From contig CAWFOU010000007.1 in assembly GCA_963817525.1 (NCBI GenBank), positions 896,001 to 960,000 of the forward strand: a stretch of DNA of 64,000 nt. The letters run 5' to 3'. The position numbers and the translations under genes are program-made. The DNA is from an uncultured archaeon. GTDB lineage: Archaea; Thermoproteota; Nitrososphaeria; Nitrososphaerales; Gagatemarchaeaceae. The notes beneath the pieces are model-generated. The model was not told the origin of the DNA and ran no database searches. It saw nothing but the letters and a program-made list of their open reading frames with translations. Positions 2,440-19,226 of the stretch are shown piece after piece. Each line of letters opens with the position of its first letter. Position 1 is the stretch's first letter.

Positions 2440-2976
2440 ATGCAGATCCGGGGAAAAGTCGCAAAGAAGTTCGGGGAAGACATCAACACCGACTACATCA
2501 TCCCCGCCTACCTCCTGCAGGAGAGCTGGGACAAGCAGTTCTTCGCTGACCACGCCTTCGAGGGCTACGACCCCACGTTCGGCCCGGCGTGCAGGGCGAA
2601 CAAGCACAGCATCGTGGTCGCCGCCAACAACTTCGGCTGCGGCAGCTCGAGGGAGCAGGCGGTCTACTCGATAAAGTACAACAACGTGGTCGCGGTGGTC
2701 GCCCAGAGCTTCCCCGACATATTCTTCCGCAACTGCCTGAACAACGGGCTGCTCCCCATCCAGGTGAGCGACACGAGCAAGATCTTCCTCGGGGACGAGC
2801 TCGAGGTGGACCTCCAGTCACGCAGGCTTACGGACATCACTACCGCGCTCCACTACCCGATACTAGCCACCGACGAGGCGATAGAGGCCATGAAGAGGGG
2901 CGGGTCACTCGGCTTCGTCAGGGATAGGCTCCGGCAGAAGCTAAAAGCACAGCCGATGAAGGCCTCGTCCCAGTAG
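2440..2976 (+). CDS. leuD: 3-isopropylmalate dehydratase small subunit
   Basis: DINTDYIIP, NFGCGSSREQA and IFFRNCLNNG motifs. Confidence 0.92.
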   Translation: MQIRGKVAKKFGEDINTDYIIPAYLLQESWDKQFFADHAFEGYDPTFGPACRANKHSIVVAANNFGCGSSREQAVYSIKYNNVVAVVAQSFPDIFFRNCLNNGLLPIQVSDTSKIFLGDELEVDLQSRRLTDITTALHYPILATDEAIEAMKRGGSLGFVRDRLRQKLKAQPMKASSQ

Positions 2977-2980
2977 ACGC

Positions 2981-4016
<1,036 letters not shown>

Positions 4017-4100
4017 CGTCTCAAAAGGCGTAATACTCTCATGGCGATCATTGGGCTGTCAGAGGTATTTAGGGTTCTGTTCCGTTGATTAGGTGGCCGC

Positions 4101-5284
4101 TCATGCTGTTCCACTCTGGGTGGTGAGCGCCTTGGTGAGCAGGGCGAGCCACTTCTGCTCTCCCTGAACCCCGATTCCCGCCGCGTCTGCGGGGGTCTGG
4201 CCTTCTAAGGCCTCATGGGGCTTTACGAAGTTGTAGTGAATCCTTTGGCCTTCCGCGAGGGTTGTCTTCATGGACTTCCATCCCCTCTGAACCTTGATTG
4301 CTCCCGAAGTGTGCCGTTCATCCTCTCCACTCGGTTGTTGTTGGCGTGAGGCTTGCCGACTCCCATCCTCGCCACTAACTCAGGCTTCGCGGTCTCCCCT
4401 TCCCAATAGCTCAAGGCCTGTGGGTAGGCGCTCAGGCCGTCTGCGAATATCTTCTCAGGCTCGCTCCCGTTGGCGTTCCTTCGGGCCTCGTTGAAGACGG
4501 CGACCGCGCCGTTCACGTTCCTGTGCTGGGAGAGGCGAGACGCGAGCAGGAACCGCGTCTTCCTGTCCATCACGTTCCAGAGGTAGGCCATGCCCTTCAT
4601 CGTCTTCCGCTCCATCCCGCCCTTGGCTGTCTCTCCGCCCCTCATCTTCACGAAGACCTCATCCGCCTGCCATGTCTCGGAAAGCTGTGGAGTGAGGCTG
4701 TTCACATACTCGGAAATCTTCGGCACGAAGGTTTCAATCCACCGATAGATTGAGGTCGCGCCCATCTCCGTCCCGAATTGGCTGTTCACCGTGCGGGCAA
4801 TCTTGCGAAGGCTCATGCCTGAAAAGTAGAGGTCGAGGGTGAGGCTCACCACTTCGGGTGTGTATCTCGACCCCCTGATTAGGGCCTGCTCTCTGAACCT
4901 GTGGCCGCAATCGTTGCACTTGAAGGCCTGCTTGCCGTGCGAGCTACCGAACCTTATCACTCGGATTGAGCCGCACTTGCCGCATTGGATTGCGTCGTCA
5001 GAGAAGACCTTCGGCTTTGGAGCCTGCTTGATTTCGACCCTCGCGGCAATCCAGAGTTTGACCGCGAGCGCATGCTTGCAGGCCTCTATCTGGTCTGCTC
5101 GGTTCTCAAAGTCTGGGCATGAGCAGACCCACGATGTTCCGAGTAGTCTGACTTCGTAGGTTCGCCCTTCATTGCTTTGGGATGGGACGCTGAAAGACCC
5201 GTCTGCGTTCTCCGCTATTCTGTTCTCCTCACAGATTGCGAGCGCCTTCATCTTCCGAGATTCCACCGCGTTTGTTGGGGACAT
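4101..5284 (-). CDS. IS6/IS240-type DDE transposase with N-terminal SWIM finger and Zn ribbon; one frameshift near 4300
   Basis: CSCPDF..CKH (SWIM), CGKC..CNDC, WQADE, FADG and NNRVERMNGTLR. Adding one base at gag-caa restores ..IKVQRGWK...HYNFVKPHEALEGQTPA.. ending at a stop at 4101. Confidence 0.85.
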
Positions 5285-5286
5285 GT

Positions 5287-5354
5287 TAGGCGCCTACCTA
5301 TTAGGCGCCTACTATTATAAACCTTTAGGCGCCTAATGCTTATATGGGCGCCTA
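5287..5354. promoter_or_regulatory. Divergent promoter region with four TAGGCGCCTA palindromes
   Basis: TAGGCGCCTA at 5287-5296, 5302-5311 and 5326-5335, and TGGGCGCCTA at 5345-5354. They flank TATA-like TTATAAA (5315-5321) and CTTATAT (5339-5345). Confidence 0.75.
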
Positions 5355-5368
5355 ACGAACCTGAGCGC

Positions 5369-5551
5369 ATGCGGTTGCAGAAGCACGGCTCAAGGACGGT
5401 GAAGGGGAAAGAATATTTCAAGTGGACTGTCGTCATTCCACCCGAAGAAGTCGAGGGATTGGGCTGGAAGGAAGGCGAGGAATTGGAACCGAAACGGGAA
5501 GGCAAGAGCCTCGTCATCCGAGAGAAGAGCGGCAAGTCAGTCAAGCCTTAG
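5369..5551 (+). CDS. AbrB/MazE/SpoVT-type small DNA-binding protein
   Basis: KWTVVIPPEEVEGLGWKEGEELE swapped-hairpin pattern; the ATG at 5369 lies about 25 bp after a TATA-like box. Confidence 0.75.
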   Translation: MRLQKHGSRTVKGKEYFKWTVVIPPEEVEGLGWKEGEELEPKREGKSLVIREKSGKSVKP

Positions 5552-6328
5552 ACTCTTCACAATGTCGAGAAGGTCGAACTGGTCCAACATGTATTTGGCC
5601 ATCGGAGAGGACATCTCGTTGATTGCATTCTGAACGAACTCGCTCAGATGGGAATGGTCGGGTGATTGAAAGACGGGATTCTGCGCCCAGATTCCCTCGA
5701 CGTTCTTAGCGGTGATTACTTGGATGTCTCTGCCGCGAGTCCAAGGGTCGATGACAGAGGCTTCATCGAGCAACAGCCAGATTAGTTGTCTAATCGTATG
5801 GCTGGAAAACCGAGCCCAGCTTTGGTCTATCCCTGCTCTGAACATGAACTTCTCTAATGCTTTGAGATAGACAGTCGCGACATCGCCGCCACTCCCTATG
5901 GCCGCCCTCATTGGCGCAAGTTCCATCTCGATGAGGTGGTCGGGCGGCTGGAATTGAAAGAGTTGGTGATGGGACATTCCTGCCACTTCGGCTCCGGTCG
6001 CGAGGATTCCCTGTGGTAGCATGTCCCCAGAAAGGTTCAGGCATTGGCTCTTGAGTTTCTTCTTTAGATAATCATTGTAGGAATCCAGAGCGTCGGATAG
6101 GTTCTCCTCGTAACCCTTTGTGGGATTGTCAAGTAATGCGCGTTTGATTCGCCGATACAGAGAGGCCTCGTAGAACGGCACGCCAGCGAACCCAAACATC
6201 TCAATCCGCCCCGTTGCTGAACTGAATAGCTTGAGCTTAGGGACGAACTCTCTTGCCGTGCCCGTCCTTTGCAAATCGGAACCGATAACCAGACCGTCGC
6301 TCGCCTGCATCGCGATGACTGTCGTCAT
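5537..6328 (-). CDS. Proteasome-beta-like Ntn-hydrolase (IS passenger)
   Basis: A start at 6328 gives M-TTVIAMQASDGLVIGSD (Thr1, Asp17), then FVPKL, FAG, AIGSGG and DPWTRG. Confidence 0.75.
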   Translation of the reverse strand: MTTVIAMQASDGLVIGSDLQRTGTAREFVPKLKLFSSATGRIEMFGFAGVPFYEASLYRRIKRALLDNPTKGYEENLSDALDSYNDYLKKKLKSQCLNLSGDMLPQGILATGAEVAGMSHHQLFQFQPPDHLIEMELAPMRAAIGSGGDVATVYLKALEKFMFRAGIDQSWARFSSHTIRQLIWLLLDEASVIDPWTRGRDIQVITAKNVEGIWAQNPVFQSPDHSHLSEFVQNAINEMSSPMAKYMLDQFDLLDIVKSLRLD

Positions 6329-6563
6329 CGCCCTTTCCGCCTCTCTTAGGCTCCTAAAAGGATTGGGATTGGGAAATGGGTTCGCGAGTCTCCATTCAGG
6401 GCCGAAGATTTCGGGCTTAACAAAGCCCCAGCCCGCCACCCCCCTTTGAACGGGGCTTTCCCTACGGAATCAACGGTAACAGAACGTATTTAGGCGCCGA
6501 TAAGTAAATAGCCAAGTAAAGGTAATACATTATTCTTCGGAGCGAGCGGGAGAGACAATAGCG

Positions 6564-7511
6564 TTGCAGCCCACCAAGAAGATCTGGTTCGACGGGGCAT
6601 TCGTCCCCTGGGAGGACGCCAAGGTGCACGTCCTCACTCACGCGTTACACTACGGCTACGCCATATTCGAAGGGATCAGGGCGAACTCGACCCCCAAGGG
6701 CCCGGCGATATTCCGCCTCCGGGAGCACATCAAGCGCCTGATGAACGGCACGAAGGTGTACAGGATGATGCTCCCGTTCACCGAGGAACAGCTCGTCCAG
6801 GGCTGCCTCGACCTCGTCAAAGTAAACGGCCTCAACGATTGCTACATCCGCCCGATCGTATACAGCTCCTACGGGGAGATGGGCGTCAACCCGATGAAGA
6901 ACAAGATCTCGGGCGCCATCGCCGCGTGGGAGTGGGGCTCATACCTCGGCGACGAGGGGATGGAGAAGGGCATCCGCGCCACCATCTCGAGCTGGTCGAG
7001 GATAGACCCTAGGACGCTCCCGCCGCACGCAAAGTGCTCCGCGAACTATGCGAACTCGATACTCGCCAAGATGGACGCGCTCTCCGCCGGCTTCGACGAG
7101 GCGATATTGCTGACCACCGGCGGGCTGGTGGGTGAGGGCACTGGGGAGAACATCTTCCGAATCAGGGACGGAGTCCTGACCACGCCCACAAAGTCCGCCG
7201 GCGTCCTAGAAGGCATCACGAGGGACTCGGTCATCCAGATAGCCAAGGACAACGGCATCCCGTTCAAGGAGGAGGACTTCCTCCGCGAGGACATATTCGC
7301 CGCTGACGAGCTATTCCTGTGCGGGACGGCCGCGAACGTCACCCCGATCAGGGAGGTGGATAACAGGGTGATAGGCAACGGCAAGTACCCTGTGACGAAG
7401 AAGATCCAGCAGACATACCTCGACGCGATACACGGGAAGATATCCAAGTACGAGCCCTGGCTCTCATACGCGAGCACCCCCACGATCTACAACACCGCCG
7501 AAAAGACCTAG
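6564..7511 (+). CDS. ilvE: Branched-chain amino acid aminotransferase
   Basis: HALHYG..FEGIR, CYIRP, AKCSANY, EGTGEN, LEGITR and GTAA motifs. Confidence 0.95.
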   Translation: MQPTKKIWFDGAFVPWEDAKVHVLTHALHYGYAIFEGIRANSTPKGPAIFRLREHIKRLMNGTKVYRMMLPFTEEQLVQGCLDLVKVNGLNDCYIRPIVYSSYGEMGVNPMKNKISGAIAAWEWGSYLGDEGMEKGIRATISSWSRIDPRTLPPHAKCSANYANSILAKMDALSAGFDEAILLTTGGLVGEGTGENIFRIRDGVLTTPTKSAGVLEGITRDSVIQIAKDNGIPFKEEDFLREDIFAADELFLCGTAANVTPIREVDNRVIGNGKYPVTKKIQQTYLDAIHGKISKYEPWLSYASTPTIYNTAEKT

Positions 7512-18230: not shown

Positions 18231-19226
18231 TTGGAGGTAATCGACATGCCGAGCAAGACCGAAGACCTCTGGTGGCTGTTCACCCGCCAGACAATCAGGG
18301 TCACCCCGCGGCAGAGCGTCCTCTCCGCCTCGACGATCATGCACAGGAGGAACTTCAGGCACCTCCCTGTGGTCGACGAGAAGGGCAGGATCATGGGCAT
18401 GATCTCCGCCCAGGACATCATAGACTCGCTGAACTTCGCCTTCTCCAGGGAAGAGGTGACGACGAGGGAGGTGATCGACTCGCTAGAGATCCCGGTGGAG
18501 CGCATCATGGTCTACAACAGCATCTGCGTGGAGCCGGGGGACGGCCTCTCGGAGATCACCAAGAAGATGACCTTCCACAACCTCGGCGGCATGCCCGTGG
18601 TCGACGAGCAGGGCGTCGTGAGGGGGATCATAACGCTCAGGGACCTGGTCGGGCTGATGGGGACCAGCTCCGACGAGATAGGCGTCCCCGTCTCGGAGAT
18701 AATGAACACGAACATCGTGACCATCTCCCCGGACGCCTACCTCTCCACCGCCGTCCGCCTGATGTCCGAGAACAGGGTCAGGCGCCTCCCGGTCCTCCCT
18801 GCCCAAGGGGAGGGGGACGGCGTCCCGAAGGGCATCCTCTCCAACAAGGACGCCCTGAGCCACGTCTCCAAGTTCGCCCCCAGGGGGCCGCCCGACGCGG
18901 GAGGAGGCCAGACCTGGAGCGTCCCCACGAAGTTCGACGTCCCGATCTCCGAATTCATGACCAGGGACGTCATCACCGTGGGCAAGGACGACGACATCAG
19001 GGTCGCGGCCTCCAAGATGATGATCTTCGGGATAGGCGGGCTGGTCGTGGACGACTTCGCCCCCGGACGGGTCGCCCTGGTGACGGAGAGGGACCTCATC
19101 AGGACTCTCTCGAGGAAGAAGGGCAACTCCGTCCTGATGACGGCGCTCCAGTTCGAGCTGGAGGTCGAGAAGGCCAAGGCGCGCTCCTCGGCGGGGCACG
19201 GCGCTGGCCAACGCTCCCACGCCTGA
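18231..19226 (+). CDS. CBS domain protein (four CBS repeats)
   Basis: FRHLPVVD, GGMPVVD, VRRLPV and IGGLVV repeats, each followed by ISxxD/ITxRD-type motifs. Confidence 0.85.
   Translation: MEVIDMPSKTEDLWWLFTRQTIRVTPRQSVLSASTIMHRRNFRHLPVVDEKGRIMGMISAQDIIDSLNFAFSREEVTTREVIDSLEIPVERIMVYNSICVEPGDGLSEITKKMTFHNLGGMPVVDEQGVVRGIITLRDLVGLMGTSSDEIGVPVSEIMNTNIVTISPDAYLSTAVRLMSENRVRRLPVLPAQGEGDGVPKGILSNKDALSHVSKFAPRGPPDAGGGQTWSVPTKFDVPISEFMTRDVITVGKDDDIRVAASKMMIFGIGGLVVDDFAPGRVALVTERDLIRTLSRKKGNSVLMTALQFELEVEKAKARSSAGHGAGQRSHA

Follow-up and report, generated by a model that had tools for sequence, protein, structure and literature searches.

Insertion sequences (IS) of the IS6 family, such as IS26 and IS257, make 8-bp target-site duplications. 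According to a review of the family, their ends carry GG tips and a cTGTt motif, the longer clades have an N-terminal zinc-finger extension, and the single member given there with a passenger gene is the transporter IS ISDsp3; the available text of that review lacks the term 'Thaumarchaeo' (PMC7986276). A survey of the thaumarchaeal mobilome describes IS of one or two genes, and in its available text AbrB is unmentioned and 'proteas' concerns viral capsid maturation proteases (PMC6563490). The proteasome fold is known to travel on mobile elements in the phage-borne PPH and AAH families. The survey of proteasome homologues by Fuchs, Alva and Lupas in 2021 added 22 new families, for which it reports 'no genomic contexts' pointing to a particular function; the available text of that survey has 0 occurrences of 'transpos' (PMC8665760). 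Here we describe an IS6-type element that carries, next to its transposase gene, a gene for an AbrB-like protein and a gene for a stand-alone protein resembling the proteasome beta subunit. It lies in a stretch of 64,000 nucleotides from an uncultured archaeon of the Gagatemarchaeaceae (assembly GCA_963817525.1, contig CAWFOU010000007.1, positions 896,001 to 960,000), referred to below as the window. We read it, with a probability of roughly 0.6, as a member of an IS6 clade in which an AbrB-fold repressor and a threonine protease stand together with the transposase under one set of operators, the activities of these proteins being predicted ones. Full-text searching of the literature turned up no account of a proteasome homologue carried by an IS.

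The window contains a mobile unit of IS6 type, whose coordinates and those of its parts are collected in Table 1. Its two terminal inverted repeats are identical except for one A inserted in the right repeat, and they are flanked by a 9-bp duplication that is perfect on both sides (a given 9-mer would recur at a set position with a chance of 4^-9, or ~4e-6), so that the matching repeats and perfect duplication reported by a first-pass annotation of this DNA were indeed present. The length of the duplication may be taken as 9 bp, or equally well as 8 bp followed by a GG tip at the left end only; the letters GGTTCTGTT at 4073-4081 correspond to the GG tip and the cTGTt motif of IS6 ends, and the 'caaa' motif of IS6 ends was not found in the ends of the element. 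The GC content is 52-58% inside the element versus 62-65% in its flanks, with a step at both ends. The element occupies the spacer between leuB and ilvE, 49 nucleotides past the leuB stop codon (4016) and 70 nucleotides ahead of the ilvE start codon (6564), and the 64-kb window yielded no further copy of its repeats, transposase, abrB or protease gene. For comparison, GTDB species genomes were scanned with an alignment of the transposase, which gave 71 loci, mostly in metagenome-assembled genomes (MAGs) of Nitrososphaerota (numbered L001 and onwards below). The left repeat of the window element is the same as both ends of the element at L001 (GGTTCTGTTCCGTTGATT, 18/18). In both the window and L001, the abrB and protease genes lie within one pair of IS ends together with a single transposase gene, which agrees with the earlier description of the window element as a transporter IS of IS6 type.

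The longer frame of the interrupted transposase gene (338 residues) holds a SWIM-like CxC..CxH motif, a CxxC..CxxC ribbon, a helix-turn-helix and the residues D, D and E. It matched the Pfam family DDE_Tnp_IS240 (PF13610) with an E-value of 3.6e-11, and the top NCBIfam model was that of IS6 (NF033587), at 87.9 bits and under its cutoff of 125. Among 13 aligned relatives, D208, D282 and E320 are invariant, as is R327, seven residues past the E. Of the SWIM-DDE transposase named at first pass, the DDE part was therefore well founded; the Pfam match to SWIM was weak (E 0.016, 15.2 bits vs a cutoff of 19.6), as was that to the zinc ribbon, yet the CxC...CxH motif and the second CxxC...CxxC ribbon are invariant in the same 13 relatives. 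Relatives of the transposase formed 644 database clusters at E<=1e-5; the best 120 of these 644 are mostly 370-400 residues long, and among the matches listed the source names are IS6 or IS1/IS6 family transposase, from archaea of the Nitrososphaerales or Nitrososphaerota. For the transposase, AlphaFold gave a model of too low quality to be used (mean predicted local distance difference test score, pLDDT, 45.2).

The transposase leaves the frame of its relatives after '...NGTLRE', and its final 56 residues are encoded at 4101-4271. The DNA alignment with the L001 element places the loss of one base in an Arg codon at about 4299/4300. We read this break as a mutation and not as a programmed shift, because it lies outside any homopolymer and the open reading frame (ORF) of the relatives is uninterrupted. 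With its transposase frameshifted and its right end damaged, the copy in the window is probably immobile, and the earlier statement that the IS is currently mobilising the protease does not hold: in addition to the frameshift, the right repeat carries an indel and is one tip G short. For the same reasons, the claim of a recent insertion, made at first pass from the intact duplication, receives no more than weak support.

Compared with IS6 elements such as IS26 and IS257, the element is alike in its IS240/IS6-type DDE transposase with D, D, E and an R seven residues on, in its terminal repeats (~18 bp long, with the GG tip and the cTGTt motif), and in the 8-bp duplications of its relatives (GTTTGTAA at L001, GTGCATTT at L007 and GACATGAG at L008). 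The zinc-finger extension at its N-terminus is likewise a feature of the longer IS6 clades (PMC7986276). It is unlike them in its length of 2.4 kb, its two extra genes with a putative repressor-operator regulon, the missing 'caaa' end motif, the NF033587 score below cutoff and its host, a member of the Nitrososphaerota.

By alignment and fold prediction, the passenger has an N-terminal nucleophile (Ntn) fold together with the full set of catalytic residues, and is a predicted enzyme. The product begins MTTVIAMQASDGLVIGSD (MTTV). An Asp occupies mature position 17, followed by Lys at 30, a GSG triplet at 144-146 and a second Asp at 193, which are the residues from which the signature had been read at first pass. 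The window protein on its own gave no match to PF00227 (Proteasome), even at an E-value of 10. Its family comprises 5 clusters that are 64-100% identical and, in a library of 1.84 billion proteins, 43 representatives at E<=1e-3. PF00227 was matched by 27 of 39 aligned family members at E<=1 (best 3.3e-12) and by all seven homologues encoded beside related transposases (E 5.5e-17 to 2.8e-4), six of which score above the 22.4-bit cutoff. A profile of the family searched against the PDB found 20S beta subunits and HslV with E-values down to 7e-8, and in these matches the Thr aligns to mature residue 1. Conservation of the catalytic residues was counted over 46 sequences (the 39 family members and the seven from the loci): the equivalents of Lys33 and Gly47 and the GxG motif are present in 46/46, Thr1 in 37/37 sequences without a gap, Asp17 in 43/44 and Asp166 in 42/46, and the Ser129 equivalent is S or T in 43/46.

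An AlphaFold (AF2) model of the protease, built on the family alignment, reached a mean pLDDT of 85.5 and has the canonical strands, helices H1-H4 and three short C-terminal helices. Foldseek placed the Anbu structure 5nyw as its best PDB match (E 5.6e-10, template modelling (TM) score 0.52/0.63-0.66), followed by 20S beta2, with a probability of 1.00. The proteasome-beta/Anbu-like assignment of the first-pass annotation is borne out by this model, and a non-Ntn fold, the outcome named there beforehand as contrary to it, did not appear. With Anbu (5nyw, 5nyj, 5lox), the protease shares the absence of a propeptide, a helical extension past the core and the Thr1/Asp/Lys residues; it differs in its 15-18% identity, in having three short helices where Anbu has one long H5, and in residing in an archaeal IS, Anbu being bacterial (PMC8665760, Table 1). 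It shares with the 20S proteasome beta subunit and HslV the Ntn fold and the equivalents of Thr1, Asp17, Lys33, Gly47, Ser129 and Asp166; unlike them it has no propeptide, carries ~60 extra C-terminal residues and falls under Pfam detection when searched alone, and the element encodes neither an alpha subunit nor an AAA+ partner. Compared by description, the orphan proteasome homologues WPH, ACC, PHI and PMI are similar in being divergent and propeptide-less, with some of them archaeal and some with C-terminal helices (PMC8665760). Look-alikes in the ESM Atlas were clusters of proteasome-domain proteins, the second cluster being commonest in Nitrososphaerota, and a viral fold library returned generic phage proteasome-like proteins only (best E 8e-8). 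There was no match to the protease by tblastn in plasmid and phage collections, and no relative in a profile scan of genome contigs with the alignment of seven protease sequences. A weak tblastn match within the window (18302-18499) was dismissed as spurious, being antisense to CBS/glutamate-synthase genes and without Pfam support.

We considered whether the protease might start further upstream, in a 300-residue ORF from the GTG at 6439, with a propeptide containing a 'PxPFRxL' motif that recurs in extended family members, and rejected this candidate. At the DNA level the 'PFRxL' motif is a palindromic operator, TTAGGnnCCTAA, in the window, L001, L004, L012, L014 and L061, which ends 17 nucleotides ahead of the protease start codon (20 in L061). 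Among 37 sequences, 18 have an M and 17 an L ahead of the Thr, and the codon for this L proved to be a TTG start in 3/3 loci; in the window, L001, L004, L012, L014 and L061 the codon before the Thr is ATG or TTG. The protease of L031 starts GTG-Ala-Thr, and in L015 the Thr is not immediately preceded by a start codon. Finally, the frame upstream of the protease holds stop codons in L004 and L014. Since the motif is operator DNA, M or L precedes the Thr, TTG serves as a start and stops lie upstream, the protease is predicted to begin Met-Thr and to have no propeptide, as had been proposed at first pass. Among proteasome homologues, propeptides occur in proteasome beta and HslV and are absent from others (PMC8665760).

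The divergent gene was correctly identified as AbrB-like. Its product matched PF04014 with an E-value of 8.8e-5 at 22.8 bits, slightly under the cutoff of 24.7; the homologue at L012 passes at 29.9 bits, and many relatives were already annotated with PF04014. In all, its relatives make up 127 clusters with 43-100% identity to it, many of them from short contigs (0.5-3 kb), which is what repeated elements should give. The protein extends only 4-12 residues beyond the fold, and these tails are its variable part. It resembles the AbrB/MazE/SpoVT regulators and type II antitoxins in its PF04014 match, and the sources name its relatives MazE/PrlF antitoxin-like. It is unlike type II antitoxins in that the window protein, of 60 residues, has no toxin-binding extension and its gene is convergent and not co-transcribed with that of the protease; the two do not form an operon, nor a classical type II toxin-antitoxin pair. 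The conserved palindromes described next point instead to the AbrB-like protein as a plain repressor, albeit a putative one.

The palindrome TTAGG-NN-CCTAA occurs four times in the promoter region between transposase and abrB and once upstream of the protease gene. Its 10-bp core TAGGCGCCTA, with at most one mismatch, is found six times in the window versus 1.17 expected, and none of 100 shuffled sequences reached six. Four of the six matches are those between the divergent genes (5286-5355), one is that ahead of the protease (6346-6357) and one is a half-site at the insertion target. The start codon of the transposase abuts the first operator. The position of the fifth operator is the same in L001, L004, L012 and L014 (17 nucleotides ahead of the start codon; 20 in L061). 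In an alignment of eight elements the divergent region has the same order throughout: abrB start, operator, AT-rich box, operator, a TTTATATA-like box, two operators and the transposase ATG. The strict palindrome TTAG[AG]NN[CT]CTAA occurs at least twice in exactly seven of the 71 loci, and these are the loci that also have the AbrB-like and Ntn genes. The layout suggests that the palindromes and AbrB make up one repressor regulon, still putative, over all three genes. TATA-like boxes lie ~25-30 nucleotides from each start codon, which, in the light of what is generally known of archaeal promoters, suggests that the transcripts would be leaderless. Two observations may be added here. The coding regions of abrB and the protease converge and overlap by 15 nucleotides at their 3' ends (5537-5551), and their transcripts could interfere. 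The sequence at the insertion target (6490-6501) runs on as TTAGGCGCCGAT, like half an operator of the element's palindrome; a meaning for this was considered and set aside as probably chance, the duplications GTTTGTAA, GACATGAG and GTGCATTT being without such a motif.

The trio of protease gene, convergent abrB and divergent transposase gene was found in the same order and orientation at seven of the 71 loci (L001, L004, L012, L014, L015, L031 and L061). The first-pass annotation had named the presence of the Ntn gene without the transposase in relatives as evidence against its reading; at these seven loci the gene was found together with the transposase. Counting the window, position, orientation and operator are kept in eight elements whose transposases are 55-90% identical. 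The search for inverted repeats at the 71 loci was noisy, and only pairs with at least 15/18 matches were believed. Elements with well-defined ends are all longer than 2 kb, and each has cargo beside its transposase gene: L001 measures 2,774 bp, L005 2,246 bp, L007 2,869 bp, L008 2,189 bp, L009 ~2,040 bp and L012 2,366 bp. At L007 (102-2970; ends GGTTCTGCT...) an AbrB-like gene is accompanied by a ClpP-like SDH serine protease (PF01972, E 1.1e-19), which stands in the place of the proteasome-like one.

Comparison of the window with L001 indicates that the protease itself is exchanged between near-identical backbones. The two DNAs are 85% identical over abrB, the promoter region and the transposase gene, and the protease region of ~1 kb is unalignable; at the protein level the transposases are 90% and the AbrB-like proteins 84% identical, and the similarity of the proteases is not significant. 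Between the window and L012, by comparison, the transposases are 61% identical and the proteases 31% (E 1e-27). In the transposase tree the window and L001 are joined with support of 100/100, and in the protease tree L001, L031 and L015 stand apart from the window, L004, L012, L014 and L061 with support of 97/94. The approximately unbiased (AU) test rejected a clade of window and L001 on the protease data (p 0.003) and a clade of window, L004 and L012 on the transposase data (p 4e-7). The two subtypes differ at positions next to the active site: proteases of the first have the pattern TT...GSG/GTG; those of L001 and L031 have TC...GHG/GDG, and that of L015, which groups with them, has TA...GSG. 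Several divergent members of the transposase clade, with different cargo, occur side by side within single MAGs (L005, L006, L012 and L042 in one; L003, L018 and L031 in another), and such coexistence in one genome would give the exchange of cargo suggested by the trees an opportunity to take place.

From these data we propose the following scheme. The element would have entered the leuB-ilvE spacer as one unit, duplicating its target. The AbrB-like repressor would most likely bind TTAGG-NN-CCTAA, with four operators covering the back-to-back promoters of transposase and abrB and the fifth covering the TATA-like box of the protease gene. Once the repressor had accumulated all three genes would be silent, and in its absence, for instance upon entry into a new cell, they would be expressed together. 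The protease would need no autoprocessing, as its catalytic Thr1 would become exposed once the initiator Met is removed. The copy in the window would by now probably be stranded, with abrB and the protease gene intact, the transposase broken and the right end damaged. Several points weigh against this interpretation. The module is present at just 7/71 related transposase loci, and the Ntn family may also occur outside IS elements. Alone, the window protease has no match in Pfam, NCBIfam, PADLOC or PDB sequences, and of eight cargo proteins searched with PADLOC none matched at E<=0.01, which leaves them without a tie to a known defence system and makes the role in defence or addiction raised at first pass a conjecture. 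The link between AbrB and the palindromes is a presumed one, drawn from their layout. L001 and L031 have H or D at the Ser129 equivalent and L031 starts Met-Ala-Thr, and some proteases of the second subtype may be inactive or differently processed. The groups compared in the AU tests were chosen after the pairwise identities were known, and the protease branches are long. The frameshifts in the transposase gene and in leuB might conceivably be artefacts of assembly; both breaks lie outside homopolymers, and a scan of 17 window ORFs for split domains, 4 of them without a Pfam match, found the 13 other ORFs with Pfam matches unsplit.

What the protease does within such an element can be proposed with less assurance. 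We favour the reading that it is not a housekeeping enzyme, and tentatively, at somewhat less than even odds, regard it as a repressor-gated effector in a conflict, be it defence, anti-defence or establishment, with a host protein or a protein of a rival element as its candidate target. An effector is preferred because the protease is fast-evolving and exchangeable and the transposase and repressor are conserved; and since the protease is swapped while these two stay the same, its target more likely lies outside them. If the protease acts in transposition control or in host conflict, it would be a new kind of accessory function for the simplest mobile elements. It is also possible, if rather doubtful, that the enzyme is integral to the life cycle of the transposon, being made in a burst with the transposase when AbrB is absent and acting on a host or rival protein or on the repressor; the protease slot would then behave as an exchangeable cassette, filled by one of two Ntn subtypes or by the ClpP-like protease. 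This would make it the first transposon family known to have its own proteasome-like enzyme, and an orphan proteasome homologue would for the first time be placed in a functional context.

The main rival to an effector role is that the Ntn enzyme cleaves its own AbrB (or the transposase) and so forms a bistable switch of transposition, for which the repressor/protease pair ImmR/ImmA of ICEBs1 offers an analogue. The Ntn elements combine a protease with a small repressor, the non-homologous ClpP-like protease of L007 also comes with an AbrB-like gene, the protease stands under the repressor's own putative operator, and the variable AbrB tails would suit such a switch. We nevertheless hold it to be unlikely: AbrB and transposase were kept at 84% and 90% identity between the window and L001 while the type of protease was replaced, which is unexpected with specific recognition, and convergent, separately promoted genes are unlike immR-immA. 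Still less probable is that the protease rides along neutrally, or is a housekeeping enzyme of benefit to the host that was picked up by chance on one occasion, without a role for the element. IS with passengers of no known role do exist, ISDsp3 being the sole IS6 example cited in the text available (PMC7986276), and the window copy retains its cargo despite the broken transposase; against this stand the same position, orientation and operator in eight elements with transposases as divergent as 55-90% identity, the retained catalytic residues, the swapping of cargo between backbones and the host's possession of its own canonical proteasome beta with a propeptide (seen beside an IS at L022). 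The casual passenger implied at first pass gives way to a gene that a conserved operator ties to the putative regulon of the transposase and that holds its position in elements with transposases of only 55-69% identity. That the enzyme is a protein ligase or transpeptidase of the connectase type, which had also been suggested, seems very improbable. Connectase is a proteasome homologue that acts as a monomeric ligase (PMC8665760), and the element encodes no partner ATPase; connectase, however, is without H1 and H2, and two helices are inserted between its strands 3 and 4 (PMC8665760), whereas our model has both helices (88-104 and 110-132, in the numbering of the 300-residue ORF) and no helical insertion at that place, and its top structural matches are Anbu and 20S beta. 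Least credible of all is that there is no transposable unit, the repeats and duplication being due to chance or an IS having landed beside a resident abrB-Ntn pair. The single copy within the 64-kb window would fit this, and it is contradicted by the IS6-type ends with their perfect 9-bp duplication, by the same three genes within 18/18 ends and an 8-bp duplication at L001, and by the GC step at each end.

Altogether, the observation made at first pass is confirmed and its interpretation partly supported; the frameshift, the palindromes and the conserved trio had been overlooked. An orphan family of proteasome homologues now has a defined and conserved context, an IS-borne regulon with a putative repressor and a short operator. 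This is the first genomic context for this orphan protease family, and the trio is also present in other soil archaea. Beyond it, a whole archaeal clade of IS6 appears to carry cargo that is regulated and exchangeable, with proteases of two unrelated kinds among it.

Table 1. Coordinates of the element and its parts (window positions, or positions within the locus where one is named).
Feature	Position	Strand	Remarks
IS6-type element	4074-6485		2,412 bp; boundaries from terminal repeats and flanking duplication
Target-site duplication, left copy	4065-4073		GTATTTAGG; alternatively 8-bp GTATTTAG plus first G of GG tip
Left terminal inverted repeat	4074-4090	+	GTTCTGTTCCGTTGATT; transposase end; reads GGTTCTGTT... 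when 4073 is included
Transposase gene, IS6-type DDE, interrupted	4101-5284	-	4268-5284 (338 residues) and 4101-4271 (56 residues, other frame)
Divergent promoter region	5286-5355		four palindromes TTAGGCGCCTAA at 5286-5297, 5301-5312, 5325-5336 and 5344-5355
AT-rich TATA-like box	5313-5321		in divergent promoter region
AbrB/MazE(SpoVT)-like gene, presumed repressor	5369-5551	+	60 residues; divergent from transposase
Proteasome-beta/Anbu-like Ntn protein gene	5537-6328	-	263 residues, starts Met-Thr-Thr; convergent with abrB, 15-nucleotide overlap
Fifth operator	6346-6357		TTAGGAGCCTAA; 17 nucleotides ahead of protease ATG; overlaps TTTTAGG TATA-like box
Right terminal inverted repeat	6468-6485	-	reverse complement GTTCTGTTACCGTTGATT; one inserted A, single tip G
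Target-site duplication, right copy	6486-6494		GTATTTAGG
Second protease subtype	L001:3923-4768		
Second protease subtype	L031:3952-4752		
Second protease subtype	L015:3781-4725		

The leuB gene adjoining the element is also split in two frames (2981-4016, with the break near 3650). The Pfam domain Iso_dh is matched over positions 2-230 in the ORF at 2981-3976 and over 232-348 in that at 3642-4016. The break, which as noted is outside a homopolymer, may reflect a pseudogene or an assembly error.

Among the other loci, an 'Ntn' match at L022 was rejected as cargo, being the host's canonical proteasome beta gene outside the IS end. A partial copy of the transposase there (5946-6668) ends (…CAGAACC) directly upstream of this proteasome beta gene, whose product has a propeptide and the sequence GTTTVG; the juxtaposition is probably coincidental. 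Other kinds of cargo were an AbrB-like gene with a 151-residue coiled-coil protein at L005 (3955-6200), and ribbon-helix-helix genes with proteins of no known family at L008 (4004-6192) and L011 (~2957-5045). In these three a small regulator gene lies beside a gene for a protein of 120-151 residues, a layout that recalls a toxin-antitoxin pair.

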